Shown one piece after another: positions 6,811-55,296 of a DNA stretch of 64,000 nucleotides (position 1 is the stretch's first letter; each line of letters opens with the position of its first letter). The translations under genes and the position numbers were made by a program. The DNA lies in the NCBI GenBank assembly GCA_030648005.1, contig JAUSIP010000016.1, positions 1,110 to 65,109 of the forward strand, given 5' to 3'. The notes below the pieces were generated by a model. That model ran no database searches. It had not been told where the DNA came from and was given only the letters and a program-made list of their open reading frames with translations. The DNA comes from a bacterium (GTDB taxonomy: Bacteria; Patescibacteriota; Minisyncoccia; Phycocordibacterales; UBA12445).

Positions 6811-8076
6811 ATGAAGAGCAAGACAAGACAGATATATATGGACTATGCTTCTGCGACGCCTATTGATCCACGGGTGGCTAAGGTGATGCAGAAGTATGTG
6901 AGTGTAGAGTGTGGCAACCCGAGCTCGATACATTCTTTGGGTGTATCTGCCAAGCGGGCAGTGGAAGATTCAAGGAAGAAGATTGCAAATGTTTTGAATT
7001 GCCAGGCGAAAGAGATAATTTTTACTAGTGGAGGTACAGAGGGTGATAATTTGGCAGTGTTAGGCACAGTCAGGAGTATAAGGGAAAAGTATAAGTATAA
7101 GGGAGGACACATAATAACGACCGCGATAGAACATCAGGCGGTGTTGGCACCGTGCCGACAGCTTGAGAAAGAGGGTTTTGAAGTGACATATCTGCCGGTT
7201 TCTAAAGAGGGGATAGTTGATCCGGAGGATGTGAAGAAGGCTCTTCGGCCTGACACCTTTCTTGTTTCTGTGATGTATGCGAATAATGAGGTGGGGACTG
7301 TCCAGCCTATTTCTGAAGTCGCTAAGGTTATACGCCGCTTCAAGTCCGGAAGTAAGGAATTTAAATTCCCTGCTCTTCTGCCTGCCCATGCTAGGGCAGG
7401 CGAGCATAATAGTGAAAGCGCGATGAATTTTGAAACCCATTCTCCGCTTTTTCACGTTGATGCGTGTCAGGCGCCGGGAGCTTTATTACTTAATGTGGCC
7501 AAGTTAGGCGTTGACATGATGACTCTAAGCGGAGCTAAGATTTATGGTCCGAAAGGTGTTGGATGTTTGTATTTAAAAAGTGGAGTTGAAATTTCTCCTA
7601 TAATCTACGGCGGAGGACAGGAGAAGGGTTTAAGGTCTGGTACGGAAAATGTCGCCGGTATTGTCGGTATGGCCGAAGTCTTAGTGACAGCTGATTTTGA
7701 TAGAGAGAAAGAGGGGATTAGATTAAGTAAATTAAGAGACTATTTTGCTGAGAAAATTTTAGAAGTTGTTTCTGATTCCGAGATAAATGGAAGTATGGAC
7801 AAGAGACTACCAAATAATTTAAACGTTTATATTCCGGATATTGGTAATGAACAGCTAGTGATAGAGCTTGATGCTATAGGTGTGGCCGTCTCATCCGGAA
7901 GCGCTTGTAATACGAACGAAGAGGGAAGTTCGCATGTTATAGATGCACTCGGTTATGGCCATGAAAGAAGCAGGGGATCTATACGATTCAGTCTGGGTAA
8001 GAGCACAACAAAGAAAGATATTGATTTCGTTATAAAAAATCTACCGGGGATTTTGGGTCGCATCAGGTTTAACTAA
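6811..8076 (+). CDS. Cysteine desulfurase (NifS/IscS-like class V aminotransferase) with a ~30-aa internal insertion
   Basis: Motifs YMDYASATP, SGGTEGDN, HVDACQA, SGAKIYGPKGVG (PLP lysine) and SSGSAC (active-site Cys). Confidence 0.9.
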   Translation: MKSKTRQIYMDYASATPIDPRVAKVMQKYVSVECGNPSSIHSLGVSAKRAVEDSRKKIANVLNCQAKEIIFTSGGTEGDNLAVLGTVRSIREKYKYKGGHIITTAIEHQAVLAPCRQLEKEGFEVTYLPVSKEGIVDPEDVKKALRPDTFLVSVMYANNEVGTVQPISEVAKVIRRFKSGSKEFKFPALLPAHARAGEHNSESAMNFETHSPLFHVDACQAPGALLLNVAKLGVDMMTLSGAKIYGPKGVGCLYLKSGVEISPIIYGGGQEKGLRSGTENVAGIVGMAEVLVTADFDREKEGIRLSKLRDYFAEKILEVVSDSEINGSMDKRLPNNLNVYIPDIGNEQLVIELDAIGVAVSSGSACNTNEEGSSHVIDALGYGHERSRGSIRFSLGKSTTKKDIDFVIKNLPGILGRIRFN

Positions 8077-8099
8077 GAATTAAGAATCAAATAAAGATT

Positions 8100-8139
8100 A
8101 AGCTGTTTTATTCTGACGGCCGTCAGAATAAAACAGCTT
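8100..8139. terminator. 40-nt perfect palindrome (bidirectional terminator-like hairpin)
   Basis: AAGCTGTTTTATTCTGACGG|CCGTCAGAATAAAACAGCTT, followed by TCGGATTTTT. Confidence 0.7.
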
Positions 8140-8155
8140 TCGGATTTTTGACAAT

Positions 8156-8183
8156 AAAAAAAGGTCAGGGGGATTCCCTGACC
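8156..8183 (-). terminator. Rho-independent terminator of the GC-rich minus-strand ORF
   Basis: The minus strand reads GGTCAGGG-AATCC-CCCTGACC followed by 7 T. Confidence 0.75.
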
Positions 8184-8202
8184 TTAGCACTCGAACCGAG
8201 TA

Positions 8203-8756
8203 CTACTTCTTCTGCTTGGACTTCTGTGCCGCCTTCTTCTTGGCTGCCTCCTGTGAGGACGACTGGATGGAGAGTCTCGAGGCCTTCGAATCGGCGTCGC
8301 GTTCCCGCTTGGCATCGGCTTCGCGCAGAGCGCGTGCTCGGCGTTCGGCCCGATTCCTTTCCTGCCGACCCGTCGTCACCTCCGGCTGGGCTTCGGTCTC
8401 GGACTTCAGCCCGGTGTAGGTCACGTGTCCCTTGAGAGACCGCAGGTCCCGCCAGAGGATGTTGAGACCACCACCGAAGCTGACCTTCGCGAGGTGACCC
8501 TGGATCTCCAGGACTCGGCCCTTGCCGTAGCTCGGGCGACCGACCGCGATGTCCTCCACCATGGGGTGGAAGACCGTGTCCGGCACCACCTCCAGGTTGG
8601 AGATGTGACACTTGACCACGCTCTTGCCGATACTGACCTCCGCGATGACCTTCTCGATGGACTCTCTAAGATCGACGGAATGGTGTTCACACGGCCCAGT
8701 ATGTTGCCGGGCATGCAGATGACGAGGTTGCCGGCACAGATGATGAGATTCTTCAT
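8203..8756 (-). pseudogene. GC-rich ORF of unknown function, apparently frameshifted near 8670-8700
   Basis: GGAGG lies 7 nt before ATG 8756. The frame from the ATG (MKNLIICAGNLVICMPGNILGRVNTIP) turns into Arg/Ser-rich nonsense. The -1 frame continues protein-like (VDLRESIEKVIAEV...GRVLEIQGHLAKVSFGGGLNILWRDL...) to the stop at 8203. Confidence 0.55.
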
Positions 8757-8845
8757 GGGATGTCCTCCGTTGTACGATTCACGCCTGTTTGAGCAGTGTT
8801 AGCTCGCTCAGGTTTACTATTTCAATAGTTCAGAGTCTACTTTAT

Positions 8846-50446: not shown

Positions 50447-50863
50447 TTGCCCCGCAAGAACAATGAGGAGCTCCGAAGGAAGGATCTCCCTAGTGGTAAA
50501 AAAAAGACCCGTTCACGCGGATGCCGAAGCAGAAAACCCAACAATAAGGTTAACCGCGGGAGATATTGGGAGGAGCGAATGGCTAAGCTCCTGGACGATA
50601 ATAACATCAAGTACACAGCCAATAGATCATTTAAAACGGTTAATAAGAAAGGATATAGAAACCATAGGGAAGTTGATTTCTGCCTCCATGAAGATCTAAG
50701 TGTCTTGCGACGAGAACATCCGATCCGGTACATTGAAGTTAAGAGTGGAAAACTAGATAGAGACCAGCAGGAGGATCTTCGTAATGCTGGAATTTATACC
50801 GACATTATCATCCCCCTAGACATAATCTATTGGGAAATACATGGTCTTTCTTTGCAGAAATAA
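50447..50863 (+). CDS. PD-(D/E)XK nuclease-fold protein with a ~45-aa Lys/Arg-rich N-terminal tail
   Basis: It has a TTG start 5 nt after GGAGG. REVDFCL (Asp) and YIEVKSGK (E-x-K) fit the PD-(D/E)XK motif, preceded by a GRYWEERMAKLL helix. Confidence 0.5.
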   Translation: MPRKNNEELRRKDLPSGKKKTRSRGCRSRKPNNKVNRGRYWEERMAKLLDDNNIKYTANRSFKTVNKKGYRNHREVDFCLHEDLSVLRREHPIRYIEVKSGKLDRDQQEDLRNAGIYTDIIIPLDIIYWEIHGLSLQK

Positions 50864-50876
50864 ATCTAGAACTACC

Positions 50877-50899
50877 CCGGCTACTTAGCCGGATTTTTT
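50877..50899 (+). terminator. Rho-independent terminator
   Basis: CCGGCT-ACTT-AGCCGG, then A and TTTTTT. Confidence 0.75.
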
Positions 50900-50938
50900 C
50901 TTGCCACGCCGATAAGGCGGGTATGCTATAATTATCCA

Positions 50939-51574
50939 ATGAACTTTATAGACACGTTTCTTCATATCGATACATACTTGGCCGGGTTGACATCTGACTA
51001 CGGCGTATATATCTATGCACTACTCTTCCTGGTTATCTTCTTAGAGACTGGGATTGTAGCTACACCCTTCCTACCCGGAGATTCCCTACTCTTTGCTGCC
51101 GGAGCGATAGCAGCTTCGGCTGGCGGATTGAATATCTGGATCTTATTAGCTGTTATAGCTTCCGCATCCATAATTGGAGATTCCGTCAACTACACGATTG
51201 GTAGTTATCTGGGAGCAAGGGCATTTGGAGATCCTAATTCACAGATATTCAAGAAGGAGTATTTAGATCGCGCACAAGAATTTTACAGTAAATATGGCGA
51301 CAGGGCGGTGGTATTGGGGCGCTTCTTCCCAATCATTAGGACATTTGTTCCATTTGTTGCTGGTGTCAGTAATATGAAATATGATAAGTTTGTCTTTTTT
51401 AATATAACAGGCGGAATACTCTGGACACTAGTTTTCTGCTTCGGCGGATACCTCTTCGGCAATATCCAGATAGTGAAAGACAATTTCACTGCCGTTATCT
51501 TTGGTATTATTATTATTTCTCTCCTACCAGGGATTTACCATCTGTTTGCAAATAGATTAAGAATACGTGAGTAA
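50939..51574 (+). CDS. DedA family (VTT domain) membrane protein
   Basis: FLPGDSLLFAAG and RFFPIIRTFVPFVAG. Confidence 0.85.
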   Translation: MNFIDTFLHIDTYLAGLTSDYGVYIYALLFLVIFLETGIVATPFLPGDSLLFAAGAIAASAGGLNIWILLAVIASASIIGDSVNYTIGSYLGARAFGDPNSQIFKKEYLDRAQEFYSKYGDRAVVLGRFFPIIRTFVPFVAGVSNMKYDKFVFFNITGGILWTLVFCFGGYLFGNIQIVKDNFTAVIFGIIIISLLPGIYHLFANRLRIRE

Positions 51575-51647
51575 GCATACATTGACTATTTAAGCCAAAA
51601 GACTTAACTTGAATACGGATGTTTTTAGTCTTTGACTCAAGGGAGTT

Positions 51648-52139
51648 TTGCAGATGCTTATCGTCGTACCTGAATTCAAAGAAGTGAAGGGTCAACTGGT
51701 CTTCCTTGCTGGCCCCATACAAGGCGCGGAAGACTGGCAGAGTTTTGCTATTAATTTTTTCTCAAAGAGATGTCCGTCGTTGGATATAGCTACCCCGAGG
51801 GGTAATTATAAAGATCTTAACTTCGATTACGATAAGCAAGTAGACTGGGAATCCTTTTACCTCGCGATGGCATCTAAGAGTGCTGGAATTCTCTTCTGGC
51901 TAGCAAAAGAGAAGACGCATTACTGCGACAGGTCTTATGCACAAACAACAAGATTTGAACTGGCTGAATGGGTGATAAAAAACACCATCAATCCGTTTGT
52001 AAATCTTTTCATTGGCATCGAGCCAGGATTTACCGGCGCGAAATATATTAGAAGGCGACTTAGCCGGGAGTGTCCGGAAATTGTAATACACGAGACCCTC
52101 GAGGCGCTCTGCGAAGAGGTGATCTTGAATGTCCGTTAA
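51648..52139 (+). CDS. Nucleoside 2-deoxyribosyltransferase-like fold protein
   Basis: VFLAGPIQGAEDWQ and AQTTRFELAEW (catalytic-Glu-type motif) resemble PF05014/PF15891 as I recall them. A GGGAG SD is present. Confidence 0.5.
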   Translation: MQMLIVVPEFKEVKGQLVFLAGPIQGAEDWQSFAINFFSKRCPSLDIATPRGNYKDLNFDYDKQVDWESFYLAMASKSAGILFWLAKEKTHYCDRSYAQTTRFELAEWVIKNTINPFVNLFIGIEPGFTGAKYIRRRLSRECPEIVIHETLEALCEEVILNVR

Positions 52140-52494
52140 ACCCGAGCTTGATTTCGATAGACCGCGACAAGTTACAAAAATCCCAGTATTTCCTGAGAAT
52201 TCAGCAGGACTCAATCGAGGTAGTGTACTCGAGATTACATCGCTCATGCCGGAAGCCGCTCAGTTGGGAGGGCTAAAAGTCGGAAAGAAGATTATGCTGG
52301 GCTATGATGGCACACATATCCGCTCGGGGCCACTTATCTGGCTGGTAGAAAAGATCATTGAAGAGATAGCCTACGGCTGGTGGAAAGTTATCGAGGTGCC
52401 ATTGCCCGACTTCTCAAATGCGGAATTCAACAAGGAATTCGCCTTGATTATCGAACATCTAGAACTTGTACCAGTCATCAAGCTGGATTCCTAA
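52129..52494 (+). CDS. Hypothetical protein (121 aa), translationally coupled to the NDT-like gene
   Basis: It overlaps the upstream CDS by 11 nt. I recognise no motif. Confidence 0.5.
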   Translation: MSVKPELDFDRPRQVTKIPVFPENSAGLNRGSVLEITSLMPEAAQLGGLKVGKKIMLGYDGTHIRSGPLIWLVEKIIEEIAYGWWKVIEVPLPDFSNAEFNKEFALIIEHLELVPVIKLDS

Positions 52495-52510
52495 TCAGAT
52501 CACACTCTTT

Positions 52511-52537
52511 ACCCCCGCTTAGCGGGGGATTTTTTTT
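52511..52537 (+). terminator. Rho-independent terminator
   Basis: CCCCCGC-TTA-GCGGGGG followed by a T-run. Confidence 0.85.
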
Positions 52538-52557
52538 ATGAAATTTGATAGACTCCA

Positions 52558-53097
52558 GTGGTGACCATACAAATGATCCACCATACAATAAAGCATGTTG
52601 ATGTCTTCCCGGAGGAGGCTTGTGTTGAGCCTGCATTTTATAGCACTAGGCGCACTGCGAAGGGAATCGTCCTTGATTCGCATAGAAAAGTTGCCTTAGT
52701 GTCTAAAAAAGGGAGTGGTTTCTACTTCCTGCCTGGCGGTGGAATTGAGGAGGGGGAGTCGACAGAGGAAGCGCTTAAAAGGGAGTGTGCTGAAGAGATG
52801 GGGCAAAGTATAAAGATCGAAAGAAAGTTCGCGACAACTTCTGAATACCGCGCCAAGTCTGCAGAATTATATGAGACATCATGCTTTATAGCCCGCTTAT
52901 CAGAAGACGGACAAGATTTGGAGGTCATACCCGACGATAGCTTGCTTGGTATGGAGGTACTCTGGATAGGTAAGCCGGAAGCGATAGAACTATTAAAAAA
53001 ACAGGCTAAAAAAATAACTGATAAAACAGATAACTATTACAGCCGTAAATTTAATACTCTCCGCGATCTATACTTCATAGATAAAAGTTTGATATAA
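52558..53097 (+). CDS. Nudix hydrolase
   Basis: Nudix box GGGIEEGESTEEALKRECAEEMG. Confidence 0.85.
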   Translation: MVTIQMIHHTIKHVDVFPEEACVEPAFYSTRRTAKGIVLDSHRKVALVSKKGSGFYFLPGGGIEEGESTEEALKRECAEEMGQSIKIERKFATTSEYRAKSAELYETSCFIARLSEDGQDLEVIPDDSLLGMEVLWIGKPEAIELLKKQAKKITDKTDNYYSRKFNTLRDLYFIDKSLI

Positions 53098-53100
53098 ATA

Positions 53101-53124
53101 AAAGGCCTCCAGTTTGCGGAGGCC
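53101..53124. terminator. Bidirectional hairpin between convergent genes
   Basis: GGCCTCC-AGTTTGC-GGAGGCC. Confidence 0.55.
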
Positions 53125-53143
53125 AGCCAGATTTTCTACTCAC

Positions 53144-53503
53144 TTAATTTTCTTTACGTGGCTTCTTTGGTTTATTTAGGAAGAGCGACCAACATTGAAC
53201 CGGCGTGATCCCTAGCGTCTCTGCTAACTTTATGATACCCATCGTAAACGCGGTATTAATATATCTATCGTACAAGAACCGGCGACCAAAAACATTGATG
53301 TACTCTTGCATATTTATACCATACTGCTTGCTTAATATTAGAGTGAGATCCTCTTCATTTTTCGGCAAGGTAGCCGTGAACTTAGTGTTGAAGTCCGCTA
53401 GTCTCTCTTTGACTTCATTAGTATCGAGTTCAATATATTTGAGCTCCTCGAAGGCTTCATCCAGCTCCTTCTTTGTGTAGGGCGAATTTATTATACCCAC
53501 CAC
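53144..53503 (-). CDS. Hypothetical protein (119 aa), possible C-terminal HTH
   Basis: It has a GTG start preceded by AGGGGGA. MGIIKLAETLGITPVQ looks HTH-like. The C-terminus is basic. Confidence 0.45.
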   Translation of the reverse strand: MVGIINSPYTKKELDEAFEELKYIELDTNEVKERLADFNTKFTATLPKNEEDLTLILSKQYGINMQEYINVFGRRFLYDRYINTAFTMGIIKLAETLGITPVQCWSLFLNKPKKPRKEN

Positions 53504-53596
53504 TCATCCCCCTTTTTTTTATAAACGTCCAATTATCTGACATAATCATAGCCTTTTTTCTTAAAATAATGTAGTCTCTAACACGGAGGTGTTGAC

Positions 53597-54631
53597 ATGA
53601 AAATCGAAGAAGTGGCGAAGATTGACATGGCTAAACTGATCAACGCCACAGGGCTCACAGAAGAAGAGGTACTCACAGCACTTAGAGTGTCTAATCCAAA
53701 ACGATGGCTTAGGGATATGAAGGCAGCGAAGACTATTGGGGAATCCCGACGAGTCTATGATGCGGCGAGCGATGATCTGGAGAACAAAGATCCGGTCAGA
53801 AAGAAGATACTCTACATGCACGAAGCAAGGTGCCAGGCTGTCGTTGATCAAAAAAAGATTGACTCTGTCGAAGACTTGTATGAAATAGTTAATCGTGGAA
53901 TTGTAGATGGCCCAGCATTCACTAAGGCTGCATGGCTTCTCGTCGCATGCATAAAACAACTAGGCCAGTTCGCAAGACTCTATCGTCAACTCATCGAAAA
54001 GAAAAGCACCAATGATGCCTTGATCACAACTGTGGCCGGTGAATTCATCGCTTCATGCATGCTTGAACTGGAGAAGCCGACGCTTACAATGGAAGAGCTC
54101 TATGGTATCCGTGCATACTCATCTTATCTTCCACCTACCCATCCTGTCCGGCATTATGCAAACAAAAAATTCAAGATTGCCCTCGGGAAATTCCTGTCAG
54201 AACCGCGTGTGCTTACTGAACTCACAACTGCTCGGGGCTGGGCTAGAGAAAAACGGGAATTTTCCCGTATAGACTCCCTGATATTCAAGATCGTGGTGAA
54301 GGAGTGTGAAAACAACCCCGTCTTCGCTAATGCTTGTGAAGTTCTAGTCAGATATTTTAATCTGATCGGCCCGAATTCAGCTCAGCGTAAATGCCTGACT
54401 ATACTTGCTGGAAGAGCCCAAACTTTCGATGAGCTTCGGCATGTCTTCGATCGCTACTCCCATGGAAGCTACTTGGATAATCTCCGCCGAAAGATGATTG
54501 ATAAGCTAGTGGCCCTGGCTTCTACGGTTGAACGGCTCATGTTTATTTATGAGAGAGGAGGATCTGGGCTGGTGACGTCTGCTAACAAGAGAAAGATCAT
54601 CCAAAAGTTGGCAAAGATGTACACCAAATAA
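53597..54631 (+). CDS. Hypothetical all-helical protein (344 aa)
   Basis: CGGAGGTG lies 6 nt before the ATG. I recognise no family. Confidence 0.55.
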   Translation: MKIEEVAKIDMAKLINATGLTEEEVLTALRVSNPKRWLRDMKAAKTIGESRRVYDAASDDLENKDPVRKKILYMHEARCQAVVDQKKIDSVEDLYEIVNRGIVDGPAFTKAAWLLVACIKQLGQFARLYRQLIEKKSTNDALITTVAGEFIASCMLELEKPTLTMEELYGIRAYSSYLPPTHPVRHYANKKFKIALGKFLSEPRVLTELTTARGWAREKREFSRIDSLIFKIVVKECENNPVFANACEVLVRYFNLIGPNSAQRKCLTILAGRAQTFDELRHVFDRYSHGSYLDNLRRKMIDKLVALASTVERLMFIYERGGSGLVTSANKRKIIQKLAKMYTK

Positions 54632-54676: not shown

Positions 54677-55162
54677 TTAACGATAGGATGTTGACAACAG
54701 GCTCATTCCCCAGTAGTCGTGGAAACCGAGAGGCTCGCCATCTTCATATCTGTAGATTTCTTCGCGGCCATTGAAATTAGTGAAGTCGAAGAGACGCCCC
54801 TGGTTGAAGTAGATGAACGAATCTCCCTTATAGTACGCCGGGCCACGACCACCGATGAACTGCCCGGTTTCGTATGTCTTTCGCAACACAGCCCTTAGAA
54901 AAGGGATCGCCTCTTTTGAGTAAGCCCCACCATAGTTCATTATCCAAATCGGCCGATCCTTGAACCAGATTGTTGTCGTGCCGGCCGACCTCTCTTCTCC
55001 TGGAATTGCGCAATACTGATCCTGAAGACGGAAGTCGCCGTCTCGATAATGAATGGCCAGGAAGTCTGGCATATCGTGAACCTGTATCTCTTCCGAAAGA
55101 CCACTAGCCAAACATGACGCCATCGCTCTGAAGAAGAATTCGCGAATCTTACTGATGTCCAC
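54677..55162 (-). CDS. DUF5680-like protein
   Basis: AGGAGGTG lies 4 nt before GTG 55162 (the track start at 55246 has no SD). The pattern YRDGDFRLQDQY...IWIMNYGG..FLR.VL resembles DUF5680 as I recall it. Confidence 0.45.
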   Translation of the reverse strand: MDISKIREFFFRAMASCLASGLSEEIQVHDMPDFLAIHYRDGDFRLQDQYCAIPGEERSAGTTTIWFKDRPIWIMNYGGAYSKEAIPFLRAVLRKTYETGQFIGGRGPAYYKGDSFIYFNQGRLFDFTNFNGREEIYRYEDGEPLGFHDYWGMSLLSTSYR

Positions 55163-55296
55163 AGGACACCTCCTATTGCTCCATTTTTTTAAAATCAAAT
55201 CTATCGGCGATATTAACATAGAGTCAACCACCACGCAATATGACAATAAACCGGGAATTTCTACTATTCAACAATGAGTGGTAAAATAATAAGACA

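Follow-up and report, generated by a model that had tools for sequence, protein, structure and literature searches.

A PF15891-family gene, an uncatalogued small gene and a Nudix hydrolase gene conserved side by side in Patescibacteria: a candidate nucleotide salvage or sanitation gene set

Organization of the locus

Contig JAUSIP010000016.1, from a bacterium of the Patescibacteriota, carries two overlapping genes, referred to here as gene A and gene B, followed by a gene for a Nudix hydrolase. We analyzed the three genes, hereafter the trio, as a candidate nucleotide salvage or sanitation gene set. All coordinates are positions in the window, that is, the whole 64,000-nt stretch of the contig, and the piece in focus spans 51648-53097. 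An earlier, sequence-only reading had described gene A as a nucleoside 2-deoxyribosyltransferase (NDT)-like gene coupled to gene B. The features of the locus are as follows.

51640 to 51645, plus strand: ribosome-binding site (RBS) of gene A, AGGGAG, read in the sequence itself, 8 nt before ATG 51654
51654 to 52139, plus strand: gene A, NDT-like (deoxyribohydrolase (DrHyd) superfamily), PF15891 family, 161 aa
52116 to 52122, plus strand: RBS of gene B, GAGGTGA, read in the sequence, in the 3'-terminal part of gene A, with a spacing of 6 nt to ATG 52129
52129 to 52494, plus strand: gene B, 121 aa, small unannotated family
52512 to 52537, plus strand: intrinsic terminator closing the A-B operon, hairpin CCCCCGCTTAGCGGGGG with 7 G-C pairs, then a T run
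52546 to 52554, plus strand: putative extended -10-like element TGATAGACT, 5' of the Nudix gene, predicted from the intergenic sequence
52573 to 53097, plus strand: Nudix hydrolase gene, 174 aa, intact Nudix box; alternative GTG start at 52558
53104 to 53124, unstranded: hairpin GGCCTCCGCAAACTGGAGGCC, lying where the Nudix and 119-aa genes converge; terminator call on the minus strand
53144 to 53503, minus strand: 119-aa hypothetical protein, loosely linked to the trio
53597 to 54631, plus strand: 344-aa hypothetical protein without Pfam match, loosely linked to the trio

The open reading frame (ORF) of gene A, 51648-52139 on the plus strand, includes VFLAGPIQGAEDWQ and AQTTRFELAEW. The earlier reading had placed both motifs in a 163-aa protein; the motifs are there, but the protein is 161 aa long when translated from ATG 51654. 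Specifically, the alternative TTG at 51648 lies only 2 nt past AGGGAG, as compared to 8 nt for the ATG, and the 161-aa form agrees with the NCBI and Logan gene call P0001 and with the N-termini of homologs. Based on the RBS spacing, the public gene call and the homologs, ATG 51654 is the most likely start of gene A, and a start at TTG 51648 is unlikely.

The ATG of gene B overlaps the last codons of gene A by 11 nt, the stop codon of gene A (TAA) being at 52137-52139. In a terminator scan, 52512-52537 was the top site; the scan returned 7 sites, as compared to 2.4 ± 1.7 in shuffled sequences. Genes A and B are one bicistronic transcription unit ending at this terminator, and gene B is probably translationally coupled to gene A. 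The 11-nt overlap, read at 52129-52139, and the strong terminator after gene B were thus as the sequence-only reading had described them. An Rfam scan of 50800-53700 yielded a sub-threshold match on the terminator hairpin only and no regulatory RNA; accordingly, we assign no riboswitch upstream of gene A.

Family and predicted fold of gene A

Gene A matched PF15891 (Nuc_deoxyri_tr2) with a score of 23.8 bits (E = 5.8e-5) over residues 18-108, corresponding to profile positions 4-91 of 105. It had no match in NCBIfam, PHROGs or PADLOC. A large protein search returned 607 homologs. Most of the best 120 of the 607 had a precomputed PF15891 assignment (E down to 1e-72), and these 120 shared 45-71% identity with gene A at 88-100% coverage and were mostly 159-187 aa long. 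Viral relatives of gene A scored 30-54 bits on PF15891.

An alignment of 37 sequences contained 33 invariant columns, with a mean column identity of 51%. The invariant residues include Q23, R49, Q62, E66, E86, H89, R93, Q97, T98, R100, E102 and Y131. As judged from the alignment, they would form a site dense in polar residues and rich in Arg, which could accommodate a phosphorylated substrate. The signature of the subfamily is FLAGPIQG..W, QV.WE, FWL..E..H...R.YAQTTRFELAEW and GIE.GF.G.RYI.

The AlphaFold2 model of gene A was of high confidence, with a predicted local distance difference test (pLDDT) score of 93 and a predicted template modeling (TM) score (pTM) of 0.89. It has the topology β1-α1-β2-α2-β3-α3-β4-α4-β5-α5, a three-layer α/β Rossmannoid with a five-stranded parallel sheet. 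Using this model, the best Foldseek match in the PDB was 4mcj (E = 1.5e-6, TM 0.65), followed by TIR domains, MilB (4jem), the NDT of T. brucei (2a0k) and Rcl (2khz). At the sequence level, the alignment profile matched 4mcj only (E = 3e-6), and the single sequence of gene A matched nothing useful among PDB sequences. Together, the model, the Foldseek matches and the profile match to 4mcj support an NDT/deoxyribohydrolase fold for the gene A protein, in agreement with the NDT/Rcl-type fold proposed from the sequence.

The glutamate of AQTTRFELAEW, E102, is invariant in all 37 aligned sequences and is located within the opening turns of helix α3 (residues 95-112). In the model, E102 would occupy the nucleophile position of the NDT fold, its match to Glu93 of Rcl and Glu98 of NDT being made by topology only. 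This predicted position agrees with the earlier assignment of AQTTRFELAEW as the catalytic-Glu motif.

Conservation of the trio

The order A, B, terminator, Nudix was found in the window and in three further Patescibacteria contigs, L002, L087 and L135. Homologs of genes A and B are therefore co-localized in three other genomes, a result that the earlier reading had required. Relative to the window proteins, identity was 53-73% (A), 41-47% (B) and 71-75% (Nudix), and the four A proteins of the trio loci were 53-75% identical to one another. Genes A and B overlap by 11 nt in the window and by 4 nt in L135, and are separated by approximately 22 nt in L002 and L087, with good RBSs. In all four loci, a GC-rich hairpin and T run lie directly 3' of gene B. 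The trio is flanked differently in each locus: by a DedA/VTT gene in the window, by genes for copper ATPase and cupredoxin in L087, and by a Band_7 gene in both L002 and L135, together with a homolog of the 119-aa gene in the former and a GATase gene in the latter.

In a neighbor-joining tree, the four A proteins of the trio loci formed one clade, joined by P0005. Its sister clade consisted of A genes that abut an HD-domain gene. Gene B was searched for among 85 A loci, comprising those of 80 GTDB species genomes and five looked-up contigs, and was present in only two, the window's own contig and L002; L087 and L135 were added through look-ups of B relatives. Conversely, seven of the 11 distinct B loci had no A gene, and the neighbors of B in these loci were DprA and Pth, GyrB, HicA or small hypothetical gene arrays. 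A metagenome search with the Nudix protein gave one spurious 24-residue match, so the trio count remains four. The A-B pairing is thus confined to one clade and is not the general module that had been suggested from the sequence: 78 other A loci were without B and had unrelated housekeeping neighbors.

Two hypothetical genes are loosely linked to the trio. Homologs of the 119-aa protein (28-30% identity) occur beside the trio in L002 and L135. Homologs of the 344-aa protein lie 3' of the trio in L002 (L002:7593-8621, 28% identity) and in L087, which has two copies in tandem (L087:6707-7810 and 7770-8801; 46% and 26% identity). The 344-aa protein, which had no match in Pfam, NCBIfam or PADLOC, accordingly accompanies the trio in three of the four genomes.

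Gene B

A word-indexed protein search with gene B returned only gene B itself. An exhaustive phmmer search of 1.84 billion cluster representatives yielded 45 relatives at E ≤ 1e-3. These are mostly approximately 100 aa long, with a few tandem duplications or N-terminal extensions. Gene B contained no motif in Pfam, NCBIfam, PHROGs or PADLOC, consistent with its earlier description as a protein without recognizable motif, and none of its relatives had a Pfam domain; weak DUF179 Pfam matches occurred in five of 35 family members. The conserved motifs of the family are FP.N.LGL.RG, G..IPIG(F/Y)DG.YVR, W.IEQL..EI..G.W.I and DLSD...FA..IE. Gene B thus encodes a genuine protein, which belongs to a small and uncatalogued family.

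The AlphaFold2 model of gene B (pLDDT 90, pTM 0.76) contains short β-strands and three helices. In a Foldseek search, this model matched nothing significantly (best E = 0.45), and the weak matches were mostly small SH3-like barrels. The suggestion that gene B might be a nucleic-acid reader found no backing in the confident model, which gave no structural match to PUA, ASCH or EVE and whose fold is none of these. Gene B is possibly a distant relative of part of AlgH/YqgE (DUF179, UPF0301, PF02622). However, it is approximately 100 aa long, as compared to approximately 190 aa for AlgH/YqgE, and hhalign gave gene B and E. coli YqgE a probability of 3.9% over 26 columns; homology is not claimed. 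AlgH/YqgE itself has no settled function.

The B domain occurs in several protein arrangements. Tandem proteins are P0122 and P0134, and N-terminal extensions are present in P0127, P0137, P0138, P0146 and P0147, the B domain being C-terminal to unrelated N-terminal regions. In contigs of the candidate phyla radiation (CPR), B members are also found in tight arrays of genes for 80-110-aa proteins (L086:5001-6132, L089:4659-5604 and L093:4001-5549).

The Nudix gene

The Nudix protein matched PF00293 with 43.3 bits, well above the gathering score of 21.1. Its Nudix box, GGIEEGESTEEALKRECAEEMGQ, deviates from G-x5-E-x7-R-E-U-x-E-E-x-G-U only at the last position, where Q replaces a hydrophobic residue. 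The gene most likely starts at ATG 52573, giving a protein of 174 aa, and not at GTG 52558, as homologs and gene calls begin at the former.

In all four trio loci, an extended -10-like TGnTA..(A/C)T element lies 15-25 nt before the Nudix ATG (approximately 6922-6932 in L002, 5420-5430 in L087 and 4482-4492 in L135), and no obvious RBS for the Nudix gene was found. The proximity of this element to the ATG, together with the lack of an obvious RBS, would imply a very short or absent leader. A plus-strand consensus 'promoter' at 52561-52589 was set aside: it overlaps the Nudix start, and the search that found it gave 5 sites, as compared to a mean of 6.5 in shuffles. The earlier reading had treated the Nudix gene as a unit of its own, in keeping with a terminator after gene B and a promoter-like element before the Nudix gene.

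Distribution and neighbors of the gene A family

The 80 best genome loci of gene A comprised 19 from Patescibacteria, 31 labelled archaeal (mostly DPANN), 11 from Planctomycetota, approximately seven from Bacteroidota and 12 others. CPR bacteria or DPANN archaea accounted for 50 of these 80, in a ranking that is biased towards relatives of the CPR query. To evaluate the neighborhoods, stop-to-stop ORFs lying up to 3.5 kb from the A gene were clustered for the other A loci. With alternative-frame artefacts of A set aside, the biggest cluster spanned five loci. Among the 149 immediate neighbors of 78 other A loci, BLAST groups had at most three members and the commonest Pfam family occurred three times; the families were tRNA synthetases, helicases, AAA ATPases and similar. 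As no neighbor family recurs among the 78 loci, gene A normally stands alone in ordinary chromosomal surroundings.

The family also occurs in viruses. It was found in 35 IMG/VR contigs, many of them 100-430 kb, and a phage GenBank collection gave two matches only. Of 30 distinct viral loci, 14 encode the A domain as part of a protein of 340-415 aa. Ten of these fusions were tested, and in at least seven the fused partner is a calcineurin-like metallophosphoesterase (Metallophos_2/Metallophos). The A domain is N-terminal and the metallophosphoesterase C-terminal in six of the ten; the metallophosphoesterase is N-terminal, with weaker Pfam matches, in L115, L116 and probably L105. In two further viral loci, a separate Metallophos_2 gene neighbors A. 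For the 358-aa protein of L102, the approximately 210 aa that extend it N-terminally had no Pfam match.

Viral fusions with the A domain N-terminal: L113:4983-6047, L117:4941-6005, L119:4896-5969, L122:4938-6032, L125:4902-6002, L128:4944-5969
Viral fusions with the A domain C-terminal: L115:4302-5498, L116:4290-5486, L105:4263-5507
HD/HDIG genes beside A: L003:5412-5999, L007:5412-5996, L008:5403-5990

A gene for a 195-aa HD/HDIG protein abuts A in L003, L007 and L008, the HD stop codon lying within a few bases of the A start. The PF15891 enzyme is thus recurrently associated with a phosphohydrolase, which may belong to any one of three superfamilies unrelated to each other: Nudix, HD and metallophosphoesterase. 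Assignment of the HD partner as a 5'-deoxynucleotidase (YfbR-like) was rejected, as it matches the generic HD and HDIG models only. The HD copy of L008, which carries the label 'uncultured archaeon', is 69% identical to the Parcubacteria copy, suggesting either transfer of the HD-A pair or a mislabelled bin.

Genomic context

The GC content is flat, at 0.41-0.48, across 44-60 kb of the window. Neighboring genes in the window encode ribosomal proteins L13, S9 and L21, DedA/VTT, a Na/Ca exchanger, RmuC, RecR, DnaB and threonyl-tRNA synthetase, and the backbone from S9 to RmuC is also present in L002. Pfam and PHROGs scans of the neighboring ORFs found no integrase or transposase, and PADLOC-DB 2.0 gave no match for A or B at E up to 1. 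Based on these data, neither the accessory block nor the defence or nucleotide-depletion system that had been proposed for the locus is supported, and the best reading is of a chromosomal locus flanked by core genes rather than a defence island.

Two other genes of this region were recorded. At 50447-50863 on the plus strand, a 138-aa ORF has a basic N-terminus and a PD-(D/E)xK-like pattern (REVDF ... IEVKSG); it gave weak matches to a PHROGs homing endonuclease (E = 6.6e-4) and to Pfam TPD, and has a 44%-identical homolog in L002. At 54677-55246 on the minus strand, between the 344-aa and Na/Ca exchanger genes, lies a gene for a DUF5680 protein (PF18931, E = 3.5e-9). No homolog was found in L002 or the other compared loci, indicating that this spot varies between related genomes.

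A proposed role in nucleotide salvage or sanitation

We propose that the trio is a nucleotide salvage or sanitation gene set of a CPR bacterium and not a defence system, an interpretation to which we give about an even chance. The proposed two-step route is based on the fold of gene A, on its invariant Glu and several further invariant residues (Arg, Gln and His), and on its repeated association with a phosphohydrolase. The phosphohydrolase would bring nucleoside di- or triphosphates, or nucleoside diphosphates linked to another group (NDP-X), to the monophosphate level. This step would be performed by the Nudix protein here, by the HD protein in the sister clade, and by the fused calcineurin-like phosphoesterase in large viruses. 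In the second step, E102 of gene A would attack C1' of the (deoxy)ribose to form a Glu-linked intermediate, and the base would be freed or exchanged, leaving (deoxy)ribose 5-phosphate. This proposed mechanism, with a Glu nucleophile acting on a nucleoside 5'-monophosphate, is borrowed from DNPH1/Rcl and MilB/BlsM, whose mechanism is established (for example, PMC10603095 and PMC10483697), and the attack is also drawn after NDT. The products would enter base salvage and pentose catabolism, or the route would serve to clear non-canonical or aberrant nucleotides. In the common view, CPR bacteria and DPANN archaea live on scavenged nucleotides, and a two-step route of this kind would suit that way of life. 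The Nudix gene, being conserved beside the pair in each examined genome of the clade, is probably functionally linked to A-B and not a mere neighbor.

Several observations weigh against this proposal. The score of gene A on PF15891 is below the gathering score of 30 bits, and we found no PF15891 member with an assayed activity in the literature on PF15891, Nuc_deoxyri_tr2 and 4MCJ. The substrate of gene A may be a nucleoside or a nucleotide, ribo or deoxy, or nicotinamide adenine dinucleotide (NAD) or ADP-ribose, and the reaction may be hydrolysis or transfer. The alignment of rat Rcl (query sequence checked to be identical to 2khz) with the gene A profile was non-significant (hhalign E = 0.17, 23 columns, N-terminal motif only). 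The catalytic Tyr of the β1 motif (Y-F-x-G) is Tyr13 in rat Rcl, and the Tyr of its YFCGS is replaced in the A family by an invariant Phe, F17. Gene A thus belongs to PF15891 and to the fold superfamily, and it falls outside both the DNPH1 and the classical NDT families. Judging by its intergenic region, the Nudix gene would be a separate transcription unit with its own promoter-like site. The trio loci number four and belong to a single clade, so inherited synteny could account for the linkage. The patchy occurrence of the A family across distant phyla and in viruses also fits conflict-related genes. Finally, the role that gene B would have, as an accessory subunit or a regulator acting on A, is the weakest step of the proposal and one that we purely infer.

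The place of gene B is where the proposal is most exposed. It is conceivable, although we regard it as doubtful, that A and Nudix are enzymes of nucleotide metabolism and B is unrelated to them, the A-B adjacency being inherited synteny in one clade. The B loci without A fit this view, as does the finding that none of the 80 A loci of the genome collection outside the trio clade carries B. Moreover, A and B overlap in only two of the four trio loci, and B evolves much faster: its identity of 41-47% compares with 53-75% for A and 71-75% for Nudix. Nevertheless, in all four loci B is directly 3' of A on the same strand, with a terminator after B and none between them; the order of the trio is kept while the flanks differ among the four genomes, and the strong RBS of B lies inside A. 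The faster divergence of B, and the presence of two small overlapping genes in one operon, would also suit a toxin-antitoxin-like pair in which A is a nucleotide-degrading toxin and B its cognate antitoxin, and in L088 a HicA toxin gene precedes a B homolog at a distance of 216 nt. We consider such a pair very improbable: hundreds of A homologs are without B or any conserved small partner, implying that A is not generally toxic, the enzyme-first order and conserved chromosomal position are atypical of mobile toxin-antitoxin modules, and PADLOC and Pfam gave no toxin-antitoxin signature.

An anti-phage or conflict system, with A depleting or cleaving nucleotides or NAD, B acting as sensor or regulator and Nudix processing the products, appears unlikely. 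The NDT/DrHyd fold does group with TIR and SLOG domains, and TIR domains were among the Foldseek matches of gene A. According to PMC9503650 (section 3.3.3), members of the TIR/SLOG/DrHyd class serve as NADases or signal-processing enzymes in conflict systems. The patchy phyletic distribution of A is in line with such a role, as are the IMG/VR contigs, many of them jumbo-sized and with A often fused to a phosphoesterase. Nudix also gave a partial match to the PADLOC candidate PDC-S07 (E = 9e-12); however, this match covers residues 52-109, the generic Nudix-box region common to all Nudix proteins, and PADLOC was blank for A and B. Similarly, the 149 neighbors of the 78 other A loci included no recurrent family, the GC content is flat, the Pfam and PHROGs scans of the neighboring ORFs gave no integrase or transposase, and A is strongly conserved and single-domain in cells, unlike fast-diversifying immune effectors.

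A bolder form of the salvage or sanitation proposal is that PF15891 and an interchangeable phosphohydrolase make up an undescribed two-step nucleotide pathway of ultra-small symbionts (CPR, DPANN) and jumbo viruses, with B as a new specificity or regulatory subunit of one Parcubacteria clade. We hold this to be rather unlikely. Such a pathway could destroy or recycle one particular class of nucleotides, either modified or used in signalling; signals derived from ADP-ribose and hypermodified deoxynucleoside monophosphates are examples.

With respect to significance, gene A is a strongly conserved NDT-fold enzyme over-represented in CPR and DPANN, and it also occurs fused to phosphoesterases in jumbo viruses. 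It could, as such, supply a salvage or sanitation step that is otherwise missing, and the trio is a small, clonable gene set. A true DNPH1-like activity would extend nucleotide-pool sanitation to CPR and DPANN lineages. If NAD or ADP-ribose derivatives were the substrate, the viral fusions would suggest a part in counter-defence. In both cases, Pfam PF15891 would gain a function.

Comparison with known systems

Gene A is a new member of the catalogued family PF15891, the Nudix protein is ordinary, and the B family is uncatalogued. The trio finding is an annotation-level refinement rather than a system of a new kind, and nothing in it departs from known enzyme classes. Our literature searches found neither the trio arrangement nor the phosphohydrolase theme, and those joining NDT with Patescibacteria returned haloarchaeal viruses only.

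The closest structure is 4mcj, a PF15891 protein (BDI_0649) of Parabacteroides distasonis annotated by structural genomics as a 'putative nucleoside deoxyribosyltransferase'. It has the (I/V)FLAG motif and the QV.WE helix in common with gene A. The two proteins are approximately 20% identical, and the A subfamily has its own near-invariant signature.

DNPH1/Rcl and MilB/BlsM resemble gene A in their Rossmannoid fold (Foldseek probabilities of 0.97 for 4jem and 0.66 for 2khz) and, as far as the model indicates, in an invariant Glu placed early in helix α3. The glycine-rich loop after β1 is also similar, being VFLAGPIQGA in A and VYFCGSIRGG in Rcl. Gene A differs from DNPH1/Rcl in its longer loop from β3 to α3, which carries the invariant E86, H89 and R93, and it had no match at E up to 1 to PF05014, the family of DNPH1/Rcl and classical NDT.

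Classical NDT (EC 2.4.2.6), as found in Lactobacillus and T. brucei (2a0k), has a fold like that of gene A (probability 0.89, TM 0.52) at approximately 10% identity. Its salvage role in organisms that need external nucleosides would be analogous to the role that we propose for gene A.

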